A stretch of DNA of 64,000 bases from Acidobacteriota bacterium (GTDB lineage Bacteria; Acidobacteriota; UBA6911; RPQK01; JAJDTT01), in assembly GCA_965263035.1 (NCBI GenBank), contig OZ253580.1, forward strand, positions 5,504,001-5,568,000, in the 5' to 3' direction. The notes under the pieces are model-generated. The model was not told where the DNA came from and ran no database searches. It saw nothing but the letters and a program-made list of their open reading frames with translations. Shown in pieces: positions 2,297 to 17,416 of this stretch. The position numbers and the translations under genes are program-made. Each line of letters begins with the position of its first letter. Within the stretch, counting starts at the first letter, position 1.

Positions 2297-5179
2297 ATGG
2301 AATTTTTTCAAGAGTTGTTCGGGACCTTTCTAATCGCCCTTGCGGCCTTTCTCCTGGCCGGGGTGATCCTGACTGTTGTTACCGCCGTTCTTGGGTGGTC
2401 GTTCTATCAAGCTCGGCGGCGGATAGATCACCTCGCCGCTCGCGCCAGCACCCTGGCGACGATGCTCGTTTCCAAGACACCCGCGTCGCAGGAGGGCGAG
2501 TCCGCTTGGGAACCCGGTCCTGCTGCCGGGTCGGAACGGACCGATTCACGGCGCTCCTTCCGCTTCCGTGACCACCCCGTCCTGACCATCGCTCTAGCTG
2601 TCGGTTTGTTCATGATCTTCTTCGGAGGGTTGCTGATCCCCTTTCTGCTTCTGGCCACCTTTCCCGTGGTTCCAGTCGTCCTTGGGGTGTTGCGGCATAG
2701 AGCTCAACGACGGATACGGGTACTGACCGCTCGAATCACCGCCTTGGAGGCAGAGCTGGCCGCCGGAACGCCCTCGTCCACACCGGCCGCCGTCGCAGTC
2801 CCGAGCTCGCCGGCAGCAGCGGCGGCGACGGAGCTGCCGGTGGAAGAAACGGAGGAGGTGGCCAAACCCGATCGGGAACCGGACCCTGCCAAGCCGGCGT
2901 GGTCCGATGCGCTGCACTCGTTCCTCTTCGGCGGCAACACCCTGACGCGGGTCGGCGTCATCCTTCTATTCTTCGGTTTCGCTTTCTTCCTGAGCTACGC
3001 GGCCGAACAGGGCTGGTTCTCGATCCAGCTCCGCCTGAGTGTCGCCGCGGCCGCCGGTGTTGCCCTGCTGACGCTTGGATGGCTCCTGCGGGACTTGCGC
3101 CGAGAGTATGCGCTTGCGCTGCAAGGCGGCGGCGCAGGCATCGCGTACCTCACTGCCTTTGCGGCCGTCAACTCTTACGATGTGATCGGCTCCGGGGCCG
3201 GGTTGTCTGCCATGATCCTGCTGGTCGCGGTCACCGGGGCTCTGGCGTTGAGGCAGGACGCGCCGAGTCTGGCTTTATTGTCCTCGCTGGGTGGATTCCT
3301 GGGCCCGGTCCTGGTCACCCGCGACGCCAGCCACGTGGCACTCTTCTCCTATTATGCCGTTCTCGACATCGGGATCGTGGCCGTGGCATGTTTCCGGGCC
3401 TGGCGCCTTCTGAGCCTGCTCGGGTTCGGGTTTACGTTCCTCGTCGGCGCTCTGTGGGGGGCCGTGTTCTATCAGCCTCAGCATTTCGCCACGACCCAAC
3501 CGTTCCTGGCTCTGTTCCTCGCACTCTTCGTCGCGGTTCCGGTACTGCATGCGTGGCGTCAACCGCCGCGGCTTGTCGGGTTCGTCGACGGCACCCTCGT
3601 CTTCGGAGTGCCGCTCGCGGCTTTCATCCTCCAGCATCGGCTCGCGAGCGGATTCGAATACGGTCCCGCGGTCAGTGCTCTCGCCTTTTGCGTCTTCTAC
3701 GCAGTCGTGGCCAGCCTGGTCAATGGCCGAGGTCGTGACTCGTTGAGGCCGCTGGTGGAATCGTTCGTCGCTCTCTCGGCAGTCTTTGGCACGCTTGCAA
3801 TCCCGCTCGCGGCGGACGAGCACTGGATCTCCGTTGGGTTGGCGATTGCGGGCGCGGCGATCGTCTGGATCAGCACCCGCCAGAATCGCCGCCTGCTCCT
3901 GCTTTCGGGAATCGGAATTCAGTTCCTGGCGGGCTGCATCGCTATCGGCGGGCATTCGTCGAGCGCTCTATCTGTACTGGACGTGGGACACCTGACGGTG
4001 GCCCTGTCCGGCCTCGTTTCGGCCTGGTTCCTGCGTCGACGCGAGGTGGTGGGCGTGGATTCGCGTCTGATCTCGGTGGTGGCGCTCATTTGGGGGTCGC
4101 TCTGGTGGTACGGAACCGGCGTCAACGAAATCTCGCGGCATCTGTCATCGCTCGACCAGGATTGCGCAATCCTCGCGTTTGTCGCCATCAGCGCCGCCGC
4201 GTTCGTCCTGCTGCGAACCCGGCTCGACTGGAAGGACTTGGCGTACCCGCCATTGCTTCTGCTCCCCGCGATGGTGCTTCTGACCATCGACTGGATCTCC
4301 ACGGCACCTCATCCGCTCGCCGGCTGGGGCGCCCTCGCCTGGCCGGCCGCGGTCCTGGTTCAGTATTGGTTGCTGTGGCGTTGCGAGACCGACTGGTCAA
4401 GAGCGACGCCCTGGGTCCACTGCGGCACGCTGTGGCTCGGCGTGTTTCTGGTTTGGCGGGAAGCCATGTGGCTCAGCGGGCAGATCGCCTCTGACGATCC
4501 AAGGTGGCCGTTCGTCATGTGGGCCCTCGTACCAGCTCTTTTTCTCTGGGCGCTCATGACGTTTCGGACTTTTCTTTCCTGGCCGATCGAGCGTTTTCGG
4601 CAGATCTATCTCGGCGTCGGGCAACTCCCCCTGGTGATCACCGTCTCGGCCTGGATGCTGGTTGCCAGCTTCCATCCGGGTGCTTCCCATCCGCAGAGCT
4701 ATATTCCGCTCCTGAATCCTGTCGAGTTCGTACAGTTGTTCTCCCTGGGTGTCCTGGTCCAGTGGTCGATGGCGGACGCCCGCATGAGGGTAAGCGCGAT
4801 CCGGTGGCCGACGCTCGGATTCATTTCGTTCGTGGCGCTGAACGGGGCTCTCGCCCGCACGGTCTGCCGCTTCCTCGAATTACCGTTCGAGGCCCAGGTG
4901 CTCCTTTCCTCCGGGCTGTTTCAGGTCATCTTGTCTGTCGTCTGGACGACCGCTGCCCTGGTCACCATGCTCGTTGCAACCCGGACGAGGCGCCGTCCCG
5001 CCTGGCAAGTCGGCACCGCCCTGCTGGTGGTGACCGTGATCAAGCTGCTCTTGTTCGACCTCGCCGATACCGGCACGCTGACGCGGATCGTATCTTTCAT
5101 AGTCGTGGGCGGTCTCATCCTCATCGTCGGCTATTTCTCACCGTTGCCGCCCAAAGACGCCGAATCGAAGAGAGACTGA
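2297..5179 (+). CDS. DUF2339-type multi-pass membrane protein
   Basis: 960 aa, many TM helices, GGNTLTRVGVILLFFG near the start of the domain and KLLLFDLA...RIVSFI at the C-terminus. Confidence 0.8.
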   Translation: MEFFQELFGTFLIALAAFLLAGVILTVVTAVLGWSFYQARRRIDHLAARASTLATMLVSKTPASQEGESAWEPGPAAGSERTDSRRSFRFRDHPVLTIALAVGLFMIFFGGLLIPFLLLATFPVVPVVLGVLRHRAQRRIRVLTARITALEAELAAGTPSSTPAAVAVPSSPAAAAATELPVEETEEVAKPDREPDPAKPAWSDALHSFLFGGNTLTRVGVILLFFGFAFFLSYAAEQGWFSIQLRLSVAAAAGVALLTLGWLLRDLRREYALALQGGGAGIAYLTAFAAVNSYDVIGSGAGLSAMILLVAVTGALALRQDAPSLALLSSLGGFLGPVLVTRDASHVALFSYYAVLDIGIVAVACFRAWRLLSLLGFGFTFLVGALWGAVFYQPQHFATTQPFLALFLALFVAVPVLHAWRQPPRLVGFVDGTLVFGVPLAAFILQHRLASGFEYGPAVSALAFCVFYAVVASLVNGRGRDSLRPLVESFVALSAVFGTLAIPLAADEHWISVGLAIAGAAIVWISTRQNRRLLLLSGIGIQFLAGCIAIGGHSSSALSVLDVGHLTVALSGLVSAWFLRRREVVGVDSRLISVVALIWGSLWWYGTGVNEISRHLSSLDQDCAILAFVAISAAAFVLLRTRLDWKDLAYPPLLLLPAMVLLTIDWISTAPHPLAGWGALAWPAAVLVQYWLLWRCETDWSRATPWVHCGTLWLGVFLVWREAMWLSGQIASDDPRWPFVMWALVPALFLWALMTFRTFLSWPIERFRQIYLGVGQLPLVITVSAWMLVASFHPGASHPQSYIPLLNPVEFVQLFSLGVLVQWSMADARMRVSAIRWPTLGFISFVALNGALARTVCRFLELPFEAQVLLSSGLFQVILSVVWTTAALVTMLVATRTRRRPAWQVGTALLVVTVIKLLLFDLADTGTLTRIVSFIVVGGLILIVGYFSPLPPKDAESKRD

Positions 5180-5353
5180 TGCACCGGAACGAACGGCGGC
5201 TTTCCCAACCAGACACGAATGCAACAATGAACGTGGCCGAGCCGAGTCCTCGCGGATCCCGCATGGGTCTGTCGAGGCTGAGCGGCCTGGGCCGGCTTTG
5301 TGTCAGACGTGGACACAACGACGTGCGTGAATGACCTTAACCGGGACAGGACC

Positions 5354-6844
5354 ATGCCCGAATCCAAGAGCGATACCGAGCACATCAATAGAGGAATGAC
5401 CGATACGGGCAGCATCGGGGGCGAATCGGCGCCGCGCAACACTTCGCCACTGCCAGACGCTCCGGCGCGTAATGTTGGAAGAACGCCGTTCCAGCACCCG
5501 TTCCGAGTCGGCGCGGGAGTGCAGCAGGCCGTCGCGTGGGTGAACACCGTGATAGTGGTGGGGCTCTTTGTCGCCCTCCTGGGCATATGGGCTCACTGGC
5601 TGTTCAGTGGCGGTGACGAGGCTTCAACGGATTCGATCACCAGCACTGGATCGATCCACGAGGCCGCCCCGCATTCGGCCGGGGATACCGATCTCCGTTC
5701 GTCGGTCGCATCGACGCCGACGGCGGAACCTTCAACGGCGAGGGCGGACGAGGATTCCCTCAATCTAAACCAAAGGGATCGCCGCCGCATTCAATCGGGC
5801 CTGAGGGCCTCGGGCCTCGATCCGGGACCCGCGGATGGCCATTTCGGCGCCGGTACGCGTGGGGTGATTCGAAACTGGCAGGCGGCTCGCGGTGTGCCGG
5901 CGACCGGCTATCTGAACTCGGTCGAGGCCCAAGAGCTGATCGCCTTAGGCACCCGTAGAGGCGCAGGCGTTCCCGCCGAGACGCCGCAGCCAGTCGGAGA
6001 CGATCGTCACCCTGCGACCGGTCTCGAATTCCCGTCGATCACCAGCCGCGGCGCCACGAAGGGCAGAACCGTCAACGACAGAAGCCGCGTCACCGGCAGC
6101 CGCGGTAACGACAACCTCACCGGCACTGACTCAGACGACACCATCAGCGGCCGGCACGGGAAGGACATCCTGAACGGCGCAGCGGGCAATGACAGGCTCG
6201 ACGGCGGCTTCGGCGACGACACCATCAACGGTGGCAGCGGTGACGATACCATCTACGGTGGACATGGGAACGATTTCATTGACGGGGGCCAGGGCAGCGA
6301 CGTCATCGATGGCGGTTTCGGCAACGACACCATCCATGGAAAGAACGGGGACGACAGGATTCGTGGTTCGCACGGCAACGACCTGCTTTTCGGTGGGTCA
6401 GGTGCCGATAACCTCGACGGCCGCTTCGGCGACGATGCCATCTACGGCGGGACCGGTGACGACATCCTCGCGGGCGGGCCCGGCAGGGATGTTTTTCACT
6501 TCGACGAACGGCATGGGATCGATCGGATCACAGATTTCAGGCCTCAGCAAGACCGGATCGATGTCAGCAAGCTTCCGGTTGGCGGGTTCGAGAACTTGAG
6601 TCTGAAAACTGTGAGACGTGGTGTCCGGATCGATCTGACAGGCGTGGGCGGAGGCACGGTTCTGCTCGTCGGCTTGACGCTCGCTGACCTGAATGCGACG
6701 CACTTTGTGTTTGGCTCCATCATTGGGGGTGGCAGGGACATGCACGCGATCGATGCCGAGGAGTTGATTGTTCTGGGTAGTGGCGAAGGAGAAAACGTTC
6801 GGGCCGAGGCGAGGAGACCTGCCGTAACGAATCGTGTCGGATGA
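5354..6844 (+). CDS. Membrane-anchored protein with a peptidoglycan-binding domain and RTX-type Ca-binding repeats
   Basis: One TM helix; IQSGL..GLDPGPADGHFGAGTR..IRNWQ...ATGYL (PG_binding_1-like); more than 10 GGxGxD nonapeptides; DRITDF tail. Start uncertain (5300 or 5354). Confidence 0.75.
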   Translation: MPESKSDTEHINRGMTDTGSIGGESAPRNTSPLPDAPARNVGRTPFQHPFRVGAGVQQAVAWVNTVIVVGLFVALLGIWAHWLFSGGDEASTDSITSTGSIHEAAPHSAGDTDLRSSVASTPTAEPSTARADEDSLNLNQRDRRRIQSGLRASGLDPGPADGHFGAGTRGVIRNWQAARGVPATGYLNSVEAQELIALGTRRGAGVPAETPQPVGDDRHPATGLEFPSITSRGATKGRTVNDRSRVTGSRGNDNLTGTDSDDTISGRHGKDILNGAAGNDRLDGGFGDDTINGGSGDDTIYGGHGNDFIDGGQGSDVIDGGFGNDTIHGKNGDDRIRGSHGNDLLFGGSGADNLDGRFGDDAIYGGTGDDILAGGPGRDVFHFDERHGIDRITDFRPQQDRIDVSKLPVGGFENLSLKTVRRGVRIDLTGVGGGTVLLVGLTLADLNATHFVFGSIIGGGRDMHAIDAEELIVLGSGEGENVRAEARRPAVTNRVG

Positions 6845-7589: not shown

Positions 7590-7785
7590 GGGTCCAATAA
7601 ACGATCGGCACGCCGTGCGGACCAAAGTGGATACACTGGCGCCATACTCCCTCTAATCCCACCATTGAGTCCCAATTGCAAGTTGAATCGAGGAGGCACC
7701 GCTATGCAAACTCGGGGCACGAGGTACGTAGAAGACACACGGTTTCCGATATAATGGCGCCTTACGCCACGGGGGCAAGTTCGAC

Positions 7786-10590
7786 TTGACGCGTTATTCA
7801 CGGCAGAAATCCTTGCAGGACATCGACTCGGCATTCAGGCGCGGGGGATGGATCGCCACTGTTCTTCTGGTGAGTCTTCTCGTTTCTCCCCATGCCACAG
7901 GGGAAACCAAGTTGGACAAAGTTGAGCTGAACCAGGTCGAGGAGCGCTCCGAATCCCTGGCCAACTCCCTTCTGGAATTCTCGGTGACGGTCCGGGAGCG
8001 GGACATGGCTCGGATCGGCAAGTTCTTCGTGTCGCCGGCCAGGGTGACGGCGTGGCCTTCTCTCTCCGGCGCCACGGATACGGAGTTCAAGTGGATCTCG
8101 ACGGCCGCGCCCCGAATTGCACGGAAGCGTCCGGCGAAGATGACCCGGACTGAACTGATGAAGAACTGGAGCAAGTTTCTGGGAACCTTCTCCTCCGTGG
8201 AGGATGCCCGATTCCAGGTCAAGGGGGCCCGCTTCAGCCAACGGAAGGGGAGAGTCGAGGGCAAGGGGGATCTCAAATTCTTCCTGATCGGACGGGACGG
8301 CAAGAACCATAGATTCTGGGTGAAGGGAACGGGGCGGCTGGTCGCGGTCCAAACTGGGGAGGAGAACTGGCAAATCTCCGAATTCCGGGTAGACGGTGTC
8401 AGGACCATGCGGGCGGCTGCGGACCTCTTCTCCGAGGTCTGCATTCCGGCGGGAGTCTCCATTTCTTTGCCCCGATACGGCGAACCGGGAAACGACGATT
8501 TCGTCTATCACGGCGCCGCCGCGGGAGATCTGGACCGGGACGGGCTGCAGGACTTGGTGGTCACGGGAATCAACCGGAACTATCTCTACCTGAACCAGGG
8601 CGGCCGGTTTCAGGATGTGGCAGACAAGGCGGGAATCTCGGTGACGCCGCCGGGAACGGCTCCTCTGCTCTTCGACTTCGACAACGATGGGGACCTGGAC
8701 GTCTTCATGGCCTCGGTGGGAGAGCAGATGCTGTTCGAGAACCGTCTGGTGCCCTCCGGGAAGCTGCTTTTCTTCGACATCTCGCAAGAGGTCGGCGTAG
8801 CGGTGAATGCCATCGGTTTCAGCGCCACCGCCGGTGACGTCAACGGGGACGGCTGGACCGACGTCTACGTCGCCTCCTACAACCGCTACGGGCGGGTCAT
8901 GCCCGACTCCTGGCACCGCGCATCCAACGGGACTCCGAACCTGCTCTTTCTGAATCAAGGCGATGGGAGCTTCCGCGAATCGGGGGCCGCGTGGGGTGTC
9001 CGCGACCAGCGCTGGAGCTACGCCGCCCAGTTCGCCGACATCAACAGAGACGGACGGCTGGACCTCTACGTGGCCAACGATTTCGGCGAGAACGGCTACT
9101 ACGTCAATTTGGGGGACCGGTTCGAGGATCGGGCCTCCAGCCTGGGGCTTCTGGATCCGGGCAACGGCATGGGCGTCTCCTTCGGCGACTTCAACAACGA
9201 CGGGCGGATCGACCTTTACGTCACCAACATGTCCTCCACCGCCGGGAACCGGATCTTGGACCGGCTGTTTCCGCAGGGAAGGGGCGACCGCAGCGGACTC
9301 AAGAAGCTGGCAGCGGGAAATACGTTGTTCGAAGGGGTGGATGAGGGTGGCTTTCGGGACGTGAGCGCAAAGTTCGGACCGTTCGTCGCCGGATGGGCCT
9401 GGGGCGGAGTCTTCGTCGACTTCGACAACGACGGTTGGGAGGACCTCTACTCTCCCAACGGGTTCATCAGCGGCAAGTCCATGAAGGACACATGAAGCTT
9501 CTTCTGGCGCCACGTCGTGGCGTCCACGGTCGGCGACGAGAAGGCCGGCAACCAGGACTACCAGAAGAACCACATGGCTCTCCTCTTCGAGCAGGGTCTG
9601 TCCTTCAGCGGATTCGAACGGGACGCCCTTTTTCTGAATCGGGAGGGTACCCGATTCCAGGATATCTCAGGGGTCTCGGGCATCGACTCCATCTCCGACG
9701 GACGTTCGGCCGTCACCGTCGACCTGGATAACGACGGCGACCTGGACATCTTTCTCACCACCATCCAGGGGGAAGGACACCTCCTGTTCCGGAACAACGT
9801 GGGCCAGGACAAGGGCTTCATCCGCGTCGAACTGGAGGGTACGAAGAGCGGTAAGGATGCCTTCGGCGCCCAGGTTCGGGTGAAGACTCCCCTGGGTATC
9901 CAGACCCGGATCCTTTCGGGAGGAAACGGTTTCATGGCTCAGCCCGACCGCCGGCTCCTGTTCGGTCTGGGGGAATCCCGGGAGGCCGAATGGATGGACG
10001 TCACATGGCCTTCCGGCGTTCGCCAGCGGTTGGGTCCCATTCCCGCCGGCGTCTCCTTGAAGCTGGTAGAGGAACAACCCGACTACCAGACCCTGTCCCT
10101 GCCGTCGGCCGCTCTACCGGATCCCCTGGAGGAGGAGCAGGTCCTCTGGAGCAAGCTGCAGATCAAGCGGGGCCTACCCCTGCCTGAATTGGCGCTGAAG
10201 ACGCTTCCGGACGGGGAGGAGATCTCCCTTCCGCTGGAAAAGGGAACGTCCTATCTGGTGAATCTCTGGGCCACCTGGTGCGGGCCCTGCCGGCGGGAAA
10301 TGCCAGAGTTGGAGGCCGCCAAGGCCAAGTTGGAAGAGAACGGGATCAAGGTGATCGGTCTCAGTCTGGACCAGGGGGTTCCCCTCGCCGACGTGGAATC
10401 GTATGCCCGAGGCCTGGGCGTGTCGTATCCGATCTACCTGCTGGAGCAGAAGGAATTGAAGAAGATCTTTGCCGGAGACGAAAGGTTCGTCCCCTTCTCG
10501 ATCCTGGTGGACGAGGAGGGCCGGGTCGCCGATAGCCATGCCGGTTGGGGTGAGAAGGCCAAGCGGAAGCTGGATCGGCTCTGCCGGTAA
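7786..10590 (+). CDS. FG-GAP/VCBS + ASPIC/UnbV + TlpA-like thioredoxin fusion with in-frame TGA at 9493-9495 (probable selenocysteine)
   Basis: ORFs 7786..9495 and 9517..10590 are in the same frame and join as KDT-[TGA]-SFFWRHVV; DxDxDGxxD repeats on both sides; UnbV-like AFGAQVRV...LLFGLG; VNLWATWCGPCRREMP. Confidence 0.75.
9506..9524 (+). promoter_or_regulatory. Putative bacterial SECIS element
   Basis: GGCGCCAC-GTC-GTGGCGTC: 8-bp stem (one G-U) with a G-starting apical loop 18 nt after the in-frame TGA. Confidence 0.6.
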
Positions 10591-10600
10591 GGAGGGGCGA

Positions 10601-10700
10601 CCTGGGAGGGGGGTCATTCTTGTCCCCCACTCTTTCTTGCCCTAACCTCCGATGGGAATTCGGGGGTTGAAAACCCCCGCTCCCGGGTTCGGCGACTGCA
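10601..10700. repeat. REP-like hairpin cluster (family B copy plus two further hairpins)
   Basis: CCTGGGAGGGGGGTCATTCTTGTCCCCC, then GGGGGTTGAAAACCCCC and GGCGACTGCAAGTCGCC palindromes. Confidence 0.6.
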
Positions 10701-10911
10701 AGTCGCCGCTTGTCTGTTTAATTGGATCCTCCAGGATTCCCTTGCCCGGGAGAGCATGGAACGGAGTCAGAGGGCCGGAGTTCCCCTGTACCTGAGGAAC
10801 TTCATGTGGAACAGCCGGTACGGTGAGTTCCAGGGAGACCAGCTGGAGCTGGCCTTTCGCGATGGAGGCGTGTCCGGATACAATTTCCACGAGACCGGGA
10901 GTAGGAAAAGG

Positions 10912-12831: not shown

Positions 12832-14283
12832 CTATGCGAGCAGTTTGTCCACCACGTGGCCGCCCACGTCCGTGAGGCGGAATTGGCGTCCCTGGAACTT
12901 GTAGACCAACCTCGTGTGGTCCAGACCCAGCAGATGCAGGATGGTGGCGTGCATATCGTGCATGTGGATGGGGTCTTCCACGATATCGTAGCCCAACTCG
13001 TCCGTCTTCCCGATGGTGATTCCCGGCTTGGTGCCGCCGCCGGCCAGCCACATGGTGAAGGCGTACGGATGGTGGTCCCGTCCCGGATACTTTCCAGGAT
13101 GCTCGTTCATGGGAGTCCGGCCGAATTCGCCGCCCCAGATCACCAGCGTGTCCTCCAGCAGGCCCCGATCCTTCAAGTCCTTGATCAGAGCGGCTGAGGC
13201 CTGGTCGGTCTCCCGGCAGCGGGTCTGCAAGCCCTCTTTGTGGACGATGGACCCCTGGGCGATCTGTCCGTGGTGGTCCCAGCCGTGATGGTAGAGCTGG
13301 ACGAACCGGACACCCCGCTCCACCAGGCGCCGGGCCAGGAGGCAGTTGTTGGCGAAAGACTCCTTTCCGGGCTCGGTCCCGTACATACGGTGGACGTGCT
13401 CCGGTTCGTCGCTGATGTCCATCAGCTCGGGGACACTGGTCTGCATCCGGTAGGCCAACTCGTAGGAGGCGATCCGGGTCAGGATCTCCGGATCACCCAC
13501 GGCCTGGTAACGCTTCTGATTGAGCTTCTTCAGCGCGTCGAGCGACCGCCGGCGCGCCTTGCGGGTCATCCATTCGGGATCGGACAGAAAGAGGACCGGA
13601 TCGCCCTGGGACCGGAACTGCACTCCCTGGTACACCGTGGGAAGGAAGGCGGGCCCCCAGCACGAATTGCCGGCAAAGACCTGCACCGGACCCGATTGCA
13701 GGACCACGAAGCCGGGCAGGTCGCGGTTCTCGCTGCCCAGGCCGTAGGTCAGCCACGAGCCCATGCTGGGCCGTCCGATGAGATGGTGGCCCGTGTTCAT
13801 GAAGAGCTGGGCTGGTGCGTGGTTGAACTGCTCGGCGTGGACGGACTTGACGATGGTGATGTCGTCCACGACCTCGCCAAGGTGGGGCAGCAGCTCGGAG
13901 AGCTCGGCCCCGGACTCACCGTAACGATCATAGGAGTAGGGAGAGGCCAGAACCTGGGGCGTCCCTCGCAGAAAGGCGAACCGTTTGCCGTCCAGCGTGC
14001 CTTCCGGGACGTTCTGGCCATCCAAGGCCGTGAGCCGCGGTTTGTTCTCAAACATATCGATCTGAGACGGACCGCCTGACATGAACAGGAAGATGATGTT
14101 CTTGGCCTTGGGTTCGAAGTGCCCCGCCTTGGGCGCCATGGGATGCCGGGCATCGAGGGCGGGGGCCGCAAAGAGCCCGTCGTCCATCATTCCGGCCAGG
14201 GCGATGGACCCGATGCTCATTCCTCCCCGGAAGAAGAAGTGGCGGCGGGTAACGGCTTTCAGCATCTCCTGTTGGATTTTCAT
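12832..14283 (-). CDS. DUF1501 family protein
   Basis: TRRHFF signal, [48 protein letters not shown]. Confidence 0.9.
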
Positions 14284-14302
14284 GAGTGCCTATTCCTCGG
14301 GC

Positions 14303-17300
14303 TCAAGGTCGAGAGATGGTTTCGTCCAGATTCAGGAGCACCTGGGCCACGCTGGTCCAAGCCATGAAGTCCTTGGAGTCCGGTCCTCGGGACGAAGGTC
14401 GGCTTCGCGCCGCATCCGACCCGGAGCCGGGCAGGTTTTTCAACTGGTCCTGGTACAGAGCCGTGAGCTCCCGGAGCTCCTCCTGGGAGGGCCGGCGGCC
14501 CAGGCAGAGCCGGAATCCGTGTGCGATCCGGTCGGCGACTGCCGGGCTCGTCTCCGAGACCATGCGGCCGGCCAGTCCTCGCGCGGCTTCCATAAAGGTC
14601 CGGTCGTTCATCAAGTTCAGGGCCTGCAACGGCGTATTGGAGCGGCTGCGGGCCACGCAAGTGGTCTCGCGGCTCGGGGCGTCGAAGTTGGCATAGAAGG
14701 GATAGGGACGAATCCGCTTCAAGAAGGTGTAGAGACCCCGCCGGTAGCGGTCGTCTCCCCGACCCGTGATCCAGGTGTCGGCCACGTACAGGTTGTCCCA
14801 GAGCCCTGCGGGCTGGGGAGGAAAGACGCTGGGGCCGTACGGTCTGAGACTGAGGAGCCCCGCGGCGCTCAACGCGCTGTCCCGGATCATTTCAGCGTCC
14901 ATCCGAAAGCGCGGGCCACGGGCGTAGAGCTCGTTGGTGAGGTCCTTTTCCCGCAGGGAATCTCCCATCCGCGAGTCCTGCCGGTAGGTCGCCGAGGTGA
15001 CCATCAATCGGTGCATGGCCTTCATGGACCATTTCTGCTCCACGAACTCGGTGGCGAGCCAATCCAAAAGCACCGGATGCGTCGGGCGTTCACCCTGGGT
15101 CCCCAGATTCTCGGGGGTCTTCACCAGGGGCCTCCCGAAATGATCGGCCCAAAGCCGATTCATGGTGACCCTTCCCACCAGCGGGTTCTCCGGAGAGACC
15201 AGCCAGCGGGCCAGGGTGAGCCGATTGGGCGGCGTCTCGTTCTCGGGCAGGGGATGGAGCACCGAGGGGACACCCGGCTGGACCTCCTTGCCCGGGTTCA
15301 GAAAACCTCCCTTGACGAAGACGTGGCTCGTGCGGGGCTTGTCCAATTCTTTCATGACCAGGCTGTTGGGCGTGGTCAACTGTTTCCAGAAAGCCAGGAG
15401 TTCGGAGAGCCGCTGCTTCTTCGGGGCCAAAATCGGGGCGAATCCGCGATAGTATTCGTTCAGGACCCTCCGTTGGATCTCGGTCCGCTGGTTGACGGGA
15501 ACGGCGAGGACGCGTTCCGCCCGGGTCGGGAGCTTGACGTTTCGGGCGGGATCCTGGTCCCGGGTGACGGAAAACCGGAAACGCCCGATGGTCTTGCCCG
15601 GCTTCTCTCCCTCATGCCTCAACCGGATGTTGAACCGGGTTCCACCCGGAAAGCCCAAGGCAGACTCCGGCATGAAAATGGCTTGGCGTTCGACCCTGTT
15701 CTTGTGACTGGTTCCGCTGTTGGACCAACCGGTGATGGGGTCGCCGTCCAGGACCCGGCGAATGCCGAAGGTAATGGGATCGATCTCCGCCGCGGCACCG
15801 CTGAACACCACCGGCGAGGAGGACCTCGGCGCCGTCATGGGCTCAGCCCGAACTTCGAATCCGGTCAGCAGGAAATCCCCCTCGGAATCCCGGCTCGAAC
15901 CGCCGTGAGGCAGGCTGGGATCGGTCAGGGTTTCCAGCCGGACGGCCGTGATCCCTTCGACCTCGGTTTCGGCCACGACCACGTACGTTTCGCGGCCCGG
16001 TTTCGGTCCTGAAGCCAACAGGGAGCCATCCTCCCGGCGGGTCAGCTCCGCGCCGCCCAGGGAAAAGTAGGTGGCCGGGTCCAGGAAGCTCCAAGAGACC
16101 AGGTCCGCGGCGGTCTTCGCCTCCCATTCCTTCTGAGCCGCCTCCAACTCCGGCGTGGAACGTTTCAGCGCAGCTTTCAGATCCACGATCTCCCGCTCGA
16201 TATCGGAGCGGTAAGTGGACAGATAGTCGGCTGGAGGCAGCGTGATGCTGGCGCTATGTGGCCGGATCTTCGTTTTCGGGTTGTTCTCCTCCATCGTGCT
16301 GTTGAAGAAAGCGAATATCCGGAAGTACTCCTCCTGCGTGATGGGATCGTACTTGTGATCGTGGCACTGGGCACAGGCGATGGTGCTCCCGAGCCAGACG
16401 GTTCCGGTGGTCTCGACCCGATCCAGGATGGCCGCCACCCGATACTCCTCCGGGTCGGTCCCACCCTCGGTATTGATCATGGTGTTGCGGTGGAATCCGG
16501 TGGCGATCTTCTGCTCGGGAGAGGCGTCGGTGAGCAGGTCTCCCGCCACCTGCTCGATGGTGAACTGATCGAAGGGCATGTCCGAGTTGATGGCCTTGAT
16601 CACCCAGTCGCGATAGAGCCACATGTTGCGCCGCCGATCATGGATATAGCCGTTGGTGTCGGCATAGCGGGCCAGATCCAGCCAGGGCCGGGCCCAACGT
16701 TCTCCATAGCGGGGCGACGAGAGGAGGCGGTCCACCAGACGCTCGTAGGCGAGCGGTCGCCGGTCTTCGACGAAGGCATCCACTTCATCGGGAGTCGGCG
16801 GAAGACCGATGAGATCCAGGGTGAGGCGCCGGACCAGGGTTTCCCGGGATGCTTCCGGGGACGGATCCAGACCCTCCTGTTCCAACCGCTCCAGGACGAA
16901 GCGGTCGATGGAATTGTGGACCCAGGCCGAATTCTTCACCTGCGGCAAAGGGAGACGGACCGGCTTGACGTAGGCCCAGTGTTTCTTTGGGGTGTCGCCC
17001 GTACCCTCGATGGCCCCGGTCCAGGGGGCTCCCTGATCCAACCAGGCTCGGATCACCTCGACCTGGTCCGGCGGCAGCTTGCCCGTGAGAGGCATGGGAG
17101 ACCCCGGGGCGTCGCCAAGGATCTTGCGGTAGAGCAGACTCGAGGAGCCGTCACCGGGCAGGATGGCCGGTCCGGACTGCCCCCCCTTCAGGGCCGCCTC
17201 CCGGGTATCCAGGCGAAGACCGTTCATGCTCTGGTCCACGCCGTGGCACTGGTTGCAACTGGCCTCGAGGATGGGCCGGATGTCCCGGGCGAAGTCGACG

Positions 17301-17416
17301 TCCCGGTCCGCGGAGGGGGACGAGCCCGATCCGCTCATCAGAGAAACGGTGCTCAAACCACTCAAAAAGAAGAGAAATATCCAGTTTGGGAATCGCAAGA
17401 CTCGCGCCCACCGCAT
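14303..17416 (-). CDS. PSD1 and planctomycete cytochrome c domain protein (PSCyt1/DUF1549/DUF1553)
   Basis: CNQCH and CAQCHDHKYDP heme motifs, WLDLARYADT, THPVLLDWLA, NTPLQAL. Confidence 0.92.
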   Translation of the reverse strand: MRWARVLRFPNWIFLFFLSGLSTVSLMSGSGSSPSADRDVDFARDIRPILEASCNQCHGVDQSMNGLRLDTREAALKGGQSGPAILPGDGSSSLLYRKILGDAPGSPMPLTGKLPPDQVEVIRAWLDQGAPWTGAIEGTGDTPKKHWAYVKPVRLPLPQVKNSAWVHNSIDRFVLERLEQEGLDPSPEASRETLVRRLTLDLIGLPPTPDEVDAFVEDRRPLAYERLVDRLLSSPRYGERWARPWLDLARYADTNGYIHDRRRNMWLYRDWVIKAINSDMPFDQFTIEQVAGDLLTDASPEQKIATGFHRNTMINTEGGTDPEEYRVAAILDRVETTGTVWLGSTIACAQCHDHKYDPITQEEYFRIFAFFNSTMEENNPKTKIRPHSASITLPPADYLSTYRSDIEREIVDLKAALKRSTPELEAAQKEWEAKTAADLVSWSFLDPATYFSLGGAELTRREDGSLLASGPKPGRETYVVVAETEVEGITAVRLETLTDPSLPHGGSSRDSEGDFLLTGFEVRAEPMTAPRSSSPVVFSGAAAEIDPITFGIRRVLDGDPITGWSNSGTSHKNRVERQAIFMPESALGFPGGTRFNIRLRHEGEKPGKTIGRFRFSVTRDQDPARNVKLPTRAERVLAVPVNQRTEIQRRVLNEYYRGFAPILAPKKQRLSELLAFWKQLTTPNSLVMKELDKPRTSHVFVKGGFLNPGKEVQPGVPSVLHPLPENETPPNRLTLARWLVSPENPLVGRVTMNRLWADHFGRPLVKTPENLGTQGERPTHPVLLDWLATEFVEQKWSMKAMHRLMVTSATYRQDSRMGDSLREKDLTNELYARGPRFRMDAEMIRDSALSAAGLLSLRPYGPSVFPPQPAGLWDNLYVADTWITGRGDDRYRRGLYTFLKRIRPYPFYANFDAPSRETTCVARSRSNTPLQALNLMNDRTFMEAARGLAGRMVSETSPAVADRIAHGFRLCLGRRPSQEELRELTALYQDQLKNLPGSGSDAARSRPSSRGPDSKDFMAWTSVAQVLLNLDETISRP

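Follow-up and report, generated by a model that had tools for sequence, protein, structure and literature searches.

We identified, within a 64,000-nucleotide (nt) stretch of an Acidobacteriota genome (GenBank assembly GCA_965263035.1, contig OZ253580.1, positions 5,504,001 to 5,568,000 of the forward strand; hereafter the window, whose numbering is used throughout unless another label is given), a probable selenoprotein gene that current gene calls divide in two. The two open reading frames (ORFs), 7786-9495 (TTG start, 569 codons) and 9517-10590, lie in a common frame and are separated only by the TGA at 9493-95. This TGA is the sole stop between 7786 and the TAA at 10588-90, and reading through it gives 934 residues. 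From comparative sequence evidence, we put the probability that 7786-10590 is one selenoprotein gene, with decoding and product as proposed here, at roughly 0.85. That the UGA itself is read as selenocysteine (Sec) appears very highly probable. A preliminary description of the window had proposed one frame cut by a single TGA in the context SGKSMKDT-TGA-SFFWRHVV, and both the frame and the context are borne out.

A single TGA is conserved at one column in three phyla

To find relatives of the gene, the 934-residue reading was searched against 41 genomes, comprising the source genome and 40 others of the same order. The tallies of TGA matches and of SelA across these 41 genomes include an unpublished genome, G016, which contributed one listed paralogue and none of the fetched loci, and on which no other result depends. 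There were 23 full-length matches in 23 genomes at 54-100% identity, each with exactly one TGA and no other stop, and sixteen further matches at 30-39% identity that also had one TGA each. In all 20 fetched orthologues the TGA occupies one column, within an invariant D-T-U-S-F-F-W-R-H-V-V-A-S. It was likewise at this column in all nine fetched TGA paralogues (29-39% identity), which share the motif D-x-U-S-x-x-W-R; the motif is wholly absent from another 11 fetched paralogues, which have no stop at that position. One of the nine is a second copy in the source genome itself (locus L030, G000:C1:3454815-3457238, plus strand), with the TGA at the same column and the downstream hairpin described below in the same register. 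This copy has about 1360 codons, encoding a propeller with Sec, UnbV_ASPIC, a thioredoxin domain with WCPPC and then TPR repeats.

The same codon recurs well outside the order. In a scan of one genome per species, the best 80 of 510 confirmed loci were analysed, among which 35 had the motif with TGA, one had Asp at the column, none had Cys, and 44 were without the motif. The 35 TGA loci belong to Acidobacteriota (Pyrinomonadaceae, Vicinamibacteria, Bryobacterales), Verrucomicrobiota (Verrucomicrobiales, Akkermansiaceae, Roseibacillus) and Planctomycetota (Pirellulaceae, Planctomycetales), with L070, L081, L082 and L089 being the planctomycete Sec forms of the family. Since L068 is the same contig as L048, the Sec-form loci total 63 distinct loci. 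The codon at the Sec column is always TGA in these 63 loci from three phyla, a pattern well beyond what chance would give, and never TAA or TAG, either of which the preliminary description had named as evidence against Sec.

Protein databases hold the family mostly in pieces. A search with residues 540-610 in a collection of 5.8 billion proteins returned 685 matches, and 116 of the 120 best were proteins of 517-654 residues covering only the part before the TGA. All 116 fragments terminate in K/E/N-D-T, at the residue preceding the Sec codon. Where names are given, they are hypothetical, VCBS or FG-GAP repeat proteins, and their sources are Acidobacteria, Pyrinomonadaceae, Blastocatellia and Latescibacterota.

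Assembled contigs from other sequencing runs provided a further view of the codon. The gene or part of it was present in 20 run rows from 10 studies, five of which were RNA. Two metatranscriptome runs of one study gave contigs of 2834 nt (on 7780-10589) and 2841 nt (on 7773-10589) that differ from the gene at 58 and 59 positions, align without gaps, span the TGA and stop at the gene ends. Among the 40 of 122 contig differences listed, none fell at 9493-95. As a separate observation, runs X18-X20 (positions 7600-10800), labelled sponge metagenome, held RNA-library contigs 90-99% alike to the gene, with X18 yielding 18 pieces that left parts of the stretch uncovered, along with many short joints stemming from FG-GAP repeats of other organisms.

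A gene broken by a recent nonsense mutation or a sequencing error, or a pair of independent genes, would match the way gene callers and database records split the locus, including the 116 fragment entries. This explanation is refuted by conservation, and we assign it a negligible chance. The same TGA occurs in independent genomes whose proteins are as little as 29% identical, and both halves are free of other stops or frameshifts. The GTG at 9517, at which the second ORF would begin, lies inside the conserved motif; as the preliminary description had stated, it has no ribosome-binding site, the preceding bases holding no Shine-Dalgarno-like run, and it sits within a hairpin, in the 3' arm. Moreover, the gene recurs in contigs from other runs, which, together with the independent genomes, exclude the sequencing error at 9493 that had been raised beforehand as a concern.

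A conserved hairpin and Sec machinery accompany the UGA

Bacterial Sec insertion depends on a selenocysteine insertion sequence (SECIS), and the preliminary description had placed a candidate hairpin with a G-starting loop at 9506-9524. We confirmed this hairpin, whose first loop base is 18 nt past the TGA and whose conserved core consists of six pairs (9507-9512 with 9518-9523). RNAfold predicted a hairpin at the equal position in all 35 new species-level loci, with stem sequences differing among them. In an ungapped alignment of 54 sequences, 86.5% of the cells in the six-pair core were paired as compared to 77.1% in shuffles, and the covariation score was 0.277 as compared to 0.118; none of 500 shuffles reached the observed value in either case. 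Sliding the register by 1-3 columns left 27-68% of cells paired. One alignment pair, 24-34, occurred as five pair types (GU 16, CG 12, UA 7, AU 6, GC 6), and a smaller sequence set gave a like trend in pairing. In a few divergent copies the hairpin is shifted by one or several bases, and these were scored as unpaired there. The loops read GUC, GGUCG, AGUUG or GGUC, such that G is always first or second.

Constraint around the hairpin is also apparent at synonymous sites. Among the 20 orthologues, synonymous diversity reached its minimum over 552 ten-codon windows in those beginning at codons 570-572 (0.17-0.20, relative to a gene mean of 0.46), and the codons immediately 5' of the TGA vary freely. 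The comparison with homologues that the preliminary description had suggested as a check thus ended with orthologues and paralogues alike carrying TGA at one column, followed by a conserved and covarying hairpin.

The source genome also has the means to decode such a codon. Specifically, the check for Sec machinery found selA, selB, selD and tRNA-Sec, with matches to SelA (444 bits), the SelB wing domain (74.9 bits) and SelD (297.5 bits) and a tRNA-Sec with anticodon UCA. SelA was present in 39 of the 41 genomes searched. A Sec-type formate dehydrogenase was not found in the source genome, where the best alpha-subunit match (133 bits) has no internal stop, and a search of the same genome for a WAxxUGC selenoprotein found none, both having been sought as SECIS controls. 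Judging from these sequences, decoding follows the standard bacterial route: the SelB/tRNA-Sec pathway would decode the UGA at 9493-95, and the in-frame hairpin downstream would serve as the SECIS element.

Besides tRNA-Sec, ARAGORN called unusually long genes of 89-95 nt for tRNA-Leu(CAG), tRNA-Phe(GAA) and tRNA-Ser(GGA) at G000:C1:42767-48752 and 2512570-2514053, which are clustered and adjoin three tRNA-Ala genes. It also called a 'tRNA-???' at 5613131-5613216 of G000:C1.

We considered whether the UGA might instead be a true stop, or a leaky one read by a near-cognate tRNA, such that the main product is a propeller truncated at 569 residues, with or without some full-length protein bearing a standard residue at this position, and the hairpin tunes termination instead of recruiting SelB. 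Termination always competes with Sec insertion, and relatives tolerate many residues at the column, both of which could be counted in favor of a stop. However, a stop would not explain why all 63 distinct loci in three phyla have TGA and never TAA or TAG, or why the codons 3' of it are constrained at both the protein and the RNA level. Furthermore, half a propeller blade would, according to the structural model, be unlikely to fold by itself, and the genome retains full Sec machinery even though it lacks a Sec-type formate dehydrogenase. We regard termination as the main fate of this codon as very improbable. The preliminary description had put forward a 934-residue Sec protein and had named beforehand tests that could speak against it, including those for missing Sec machinery, other stop codons at the column and sequencing error; the tests run came out in favor of such a protein, which the sequence data support.

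Protein architecture and predicted structure

The joined protein has a continuous domain architecture across the TGA. FG-GAP repeats had been described on both sides of the break, and this was upheld by six Pfam FG-GAP_3 stretches (138 bits, 1.4e-40; FG-GAP was also matched), a conserved DxDxDG-type repeat at residues 646-654, and a fold match to CRTAC1 that crosses the break. AlphaFold2, given an alignment of 73 rows, produced a model with a mean predicted local distance difference test score (pLDDT) of 89.7 and a predicted template modelling score of 0.88. In this model, U570 begins helix 570-582 directly after strand 565-568, so that Sec570 is predicted to open a short helix inserted in the propeller. 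The top Foldseek match was murine CRTAC1 (9etn_A, E 4.4e-28, template modelling (TM) score 0.73 on the target), and the part of the protein assigned to UnbV_ASPIC aligns with CRTAC1 residues 369-482. No Pfam family matches the N-terminal alpha+beta domain (residues ~45-215), and no NCBIfam model covers the propeller part.

The C-terminal domain matches the folds of ResA, TlpA and DsbE structures (TM scores 0.6-0.8 on the target). Its scores fall short of the NCBIfam equivalog cut-offs for ResA (65.1 vs 170 bits), TlpA (57.1 vs 230 bits) and DsbE (35.5 vs 123 bits), and we therefore place it in the TlpA/ResA/DsbE superfamily rather than assigning it to an equivalog. Domains of the TlpA and DsbD_N types act outside the cytoplasm. 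Given its TlpA-type domain, its signal-peptide-like N-terminus and the DsbD_N domain fused to one Sec paralogue, the protein is probably exported.

Predicted selenocysteine co-occurs with cysteine motifs

To compare forms with and without Sec, a 161-residue profile around Sec was run against 1.84 billion representatives, giving 55,523 matches of which the best 150 were analysed. The non-Sec set comprised 43 stop-free, full-length proteins with S-x-x-W-R among these 150 and 4 others, 47 in total, although the pattern may miss some. We next searched these 47 proteins with a profile of the thioredoxin domain derived from 28 Sec forms. Both forms with Cys at the Sec column have W-C-x-P-C, and they are the only non-Sec forms with that canonical motif. 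The 45 homologues with neither Sec nor Cys divide into 21 without a thioredoxin domain, 13 with a decayed motif (at most one Cys), 3 with partial matches and 8 with CxxC. Individual variants across all the loci and proteins compared include a Planctomycetaceae copy (L069) with Asp at the column and a metagenome protein (P0003) with Leu there and S-C-A-A-C as its thioredoxin motif.

Sec forms present a more uniform picture. CxxC lies about 253-286 residues downstream in 55 of the 63, four end after UnbV_ASPIC, and four are cut by the end of the locus, so that 55 of 59 readable C-termini have CxxC at this distance. All four Sec forms that lack the thioredoxin domain (L036, L086, L089, L093) have U-x-C, with Cys at +2, which is found in none of the 55 CxxC forms. 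Cys immediately precedes Sec (D-C-U) in the Pirellulaceae loci L070 and L081. One Sec paralogue has an N-terminal DsbD_N domain (43 bits, cut-off 25), and TPR repeats are added in the group-2 paralogues. These Sec/CxxC and U-x-C patterns are what a Sec-thiol relay predicts, because Sec needs a resolving thiol and the reductase module would decay after Sec loss.

In such a relay, Sec would be the reactive center of an extracytoplasmic oxidoreductase and would react with an oxidised substrate or an oxidant. Cys832/Cys835 in the fused thioredoxin domain would then resolve the selenenic acid or selenenylsulfide so formed, and the domain would in turn be re-reduced via a DsbD/CcdA route. In relatives without the thioredoxin domain, the Cys at +2 would act as the resolving thiol. 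The sole DsbD_TM match in the genome is at G000:C1:1482811-1483452 on the minus strand, in an open frame of 824 aa. This gene is about 5 kb from the SelB wing-domain match at 1477250-1477369, which may be coincidence. On balance we lean towards the relay as a whole. The preliminary description had suggested that Sec is recycled by the protein's own TlpA-like domain; its expected signature is present, in that Sec co-varies with an intact CxxC and is accompanied by U-x-C when the domain is absent, and from this we infer the recycling itself. The general expectation that it cited, that Sec usually occupies redox-active Cys positions, held only in part. Both Cys forms keep W-C-x-P-C, but the usual Sec/Cys pairing is weak, as only 2 of the 47 non-Sec homologues have Cys.

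We tentatively propose that the family represents a new class of exported selenoenzyme, to which we give somewhat less than even odds. Its members would carry a catalytic, near-obligatory Sec on a CRTAC1-like propeller instead of a thioredoxin fold, served by their own TlpA-type module or by U-x-C and fed by DsbD. An alternative is that Sec is inserted but takes part in no thiol-coupled redox cycle, serving instead in metal or ligand binding or in stabilising the propeller insert, with the thioredoxin domain attending to a separate client. Several features are compatible with this: the column tolerates many residues and only rarely Cys, the S-x-x-W-R helix is kept with or without Sec and so looks structural, some non-Sec forms retain CxxC, and the TPR repeats of group-2 forms suggest protein clients. 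Yet a non-redox Sec would leave unexplained why every readable Sec form has either CxxC or, in the other four, U-x-C, and why CxxC has decayed or its domain has been lost in 37 of the 45 forms with neither Sec nor Cys. The DsbD_N fusion in one Sec paralogue and the position of Sec at the N-terminus of a predicted helix also argue for redox chemistry. We consider the non-redox alternative unlikely, although less so than the readings of the codon as a stop or of the gene as broken.

A number of observations nevertheless weigh against a catalytic selenoenzyme, or against individual steps leading to it. At the Sec column, the 47 non-Sec homologues have S 15, E 7, A 6, D 5, N 3, C 2, Q 2, M 2, R 2, L 2 and G 1; a catalytic Sec does not usually have so few Cys counterparts, which makes a non-redox role conceivable. 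CxxC is still kept in 8 non-Sec forms, and the counts describing Sec/CxxC co-variation (55 of 59, 37 of 45) are descriptive and uncorrected for relatedness. The apical loop of the hairpin has 3 nt in this copy as opposed to 5 in most relatives, and positions 9300-9700 had no Rfam match at E up to 1. Residues 561-570 of the model, which lead up to and include Sec, have a mean pLDDT of only 66. RNA libraries may hold DNA, and it is likely, going by the 40 of 122 differences listed, that the contigs are identical to the gene at 9493-95. Conservation of the neighboring genes does not extend beyond the genus, and they offer no clue to the substrate. Finally, SelA was not found in G009 and G012 (95% complete), both of which carry the TGA gene and SelB. 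These two genomes belong to the same family but another genus, and their best SelA matches, at about 40 bits, are other pyridoxal-phosphate enzymes.

Gene boundaries and neighborhood

As shown in Table 1, the gene is preceded by a Shine-Dalgarno-like sequence and followed by terminator-like hairpins. A purine-rich GGGGG/GAGGG run occurs at equal spacing to the start in 9 of 9 genomes of the genus, and the TTG start and signal-peptide-like N-terminus are kept in all nine. The hairpins 3' of the gene are weak evidence of termination, because 3 were found where 2.9 are expected in shuffles. The gene's neighbors encode a DUF2339 protein, an RTX/peptidoglycan-binding protein, a 306-residue ORF without assignment and a BNR-like protein. 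Further downstream lies a DUF1501 gene next to a PSCyt1/PSCyt2/PSD1 gene, a pair that is frequent in Planctomycetes-like genomes.

Table 1. Features of the probable selenoprotein gene and its surroundings in the window.
Feature	Position	Strand	Description
DUF2339 membrane protein	2297-5179		Upstream of the selenoprotein gene
RTX-repeat protein with peptidoglycan-binding domain	5300-6844		Upstream of the selenoprotein gene
Shine-Dalgarno-like GGGGG	7771-7775	+	10 nt ahead of the start codon
Probable selenoprotein gene, 934 codons + TAA	7786-10590	+	Currently called as two ORFs; probably exported; CRTAC1-like propeller / UnbV_ASPIC / TlpA-like thioredoxin
TTG start and signal-peptide-like N-terminus, residues 1-39	7786-7902	+	Putative; basic stretch, hydrophobic WIATVLLVSLLVS, small residues ahead of E40
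N-terminal alpha+beta domain, residues ~45-215	7918-8430	+	Helices 45-70 and 121-132, long strands 137-210; pLDDT mostly >90
FG-GAP beta-propeller, residues ~225-690	8458-9855	+	DxDxDG-type repeats on both sides of the TGA; invariant Asp columns
UGA probably read as selenocysteine, U570	9493-9495	+	Opens predicted helix 570-582; family motif D-x-U-S-x-x-W-R
SECIS-like hairpin	9506-9524	+	Stem 9506-9513/9517-9524, 8 pairs (one G.U), loop GUC 9514-16; 11-29 nt downstream of the UGA
UnbV_ASPIC domain, residues 692-756	9859-10053	+	Pfam 1.2e-14, 54.4 bits, cut-off 23.4
TlpA/ResA-like thioredoxin-fold domain, residues 796-920	10171-10545	+	Redoxin 50.3 bits, AhpC-TSA 48.6 bits, both above cut-offs
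W-C-G-P-C redox motif, residues 831-835 (Cys832, Cys835)	10276-10290	+	262 residues past Sec
Terminator-like hairpins after the stop codon	10608-10628; second at 10690-10708	+	Weak
DUF1501 gene, then PSCyt1/PSCyt2/PSD1 (planctomycete cytochrome c type) gene	12832-17416	-	

Relation to known systems and implications

The archetype of bacterial SelB/SECIS-dependent selenoprotein genes is E. coli fdhF. The gene described here resembles genes of this kind in its in-frame UGA, its coding-region hairpin within about 11-30 nt, the G at the start of the apical loop and the presence of the machinery. It differs from the fdhF type in belonging to an unrelated protein family and in having a short hairpin, with 6-8 pairs and a loop of 3-5 nt. 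CRTAC1 itself is not known to be a selenoprotein. The CRTAC1 family shares the combination of FG-GAP propeller and UnbV_ASPIC, both of which exceed Pfam cut-offs here, and 9etn is the best fold match. Sequence matches to murine CRTAC1 (PDB 9etn) occur on both sides of the break, but residues 483-632, which include the Sec helix, are uncovered, and the deposited chain has no thioredoxin-domain match. With TlpA, ResA and DsbE (CcmG), the C-terminal domain has in common its fold, its Redoxin/AhpC-TSA family membership and W-C-x-P-C; unlike them, it is fused behind a propeller.

Exported thioredoxin-fold selenoproteins have been described before. A May 2026 review of prokaryotic selenoproteins (PMC13188914) lists 119 families in its Table 1, including a UGC-containing TlpA family (WAxxUGC; NF041054). 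Like that family, the protein described here would be an exported thioredoxin-fold protein of a Sec-using bacterium. However, Sec in the catalogued TlpA-type proteins is inside the thioredoxin motif, whereas here that motif is all-Cys and Sec is 262 residues upstream in another domain; the NF041054 score is 36.5 bits against a cut-off of 300. None of the 119 families in Table 1 of the review is entered as FG-GAP, VCBS, ASPIC, CRTAC or propeller, and the available portion of a 2006 selenoprotein survey (PMC1794560) makes no mention of the family. Full-text literature searches turned up no paper on a selenoprotein with this architecture, although supplements of other large surveys may list the family.

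The closest precedent is in Table S9 of Kim et al. 2016 (PMC4807772), where four ASPIC/UnbV FG-GAP proteins appear as selenoprotein candidates, listed by IMG identifier and description, in the supplement only and without family analysis; the main text does not mention them. By description, these candidates resemble the present family in domain content, and each is annotated as two genes. Planctomycete Sec forms of the family were recovered independently in the present scan. The homologous position of their closest match is given as G rather than Cys, and bSECISearch was positive in three of the four. Table S9 of that study describes neither the coupling to a thioredoxin domain nor the U-x-C forms, nor a distribution over three phyla. 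Given this listing, the family appears barely documented rather than unknown. The present analysis adds constraint at synonymous sites, covariation of the hairpin in three phyla, the association of Sec with an intact CxxC or with U-x-C, a paralogue fused to DsbD_N, and contigs from RNA libraries.

These results have consequences for how environmental genomes are read. Since this gene and hundreds of its relatives are split into 'VCBS/FG-GAP repeat' and 'thioredoxin' fragments, both selenoproteomes and domain architectures are under-read in three large environmental phyla. In this large family, Sec is not part of any thioredoxin-like motif and is seldom replaced by Cys. Natural 'experiments' within it, in which Sec loss is accompanied by CxxC decay and domain loss by U-x-C, link Sec to the fused reductase. 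Several paralogues per genome occur in three phyla and the genome studied here has no Sec-type formate dehydrogenase, which suggests that the family may be a main reason for retention of the Sec machinery in these mostly aerobic bacteria. Bacterial CRTAC1-like propellers are abundant, and a redox-active site would offer a concrete and testable activity for them. If the proposal is true, the new class of exported selenoenzyme would open a first biochemical route to what bacterial CRTAC1-like proteins do.

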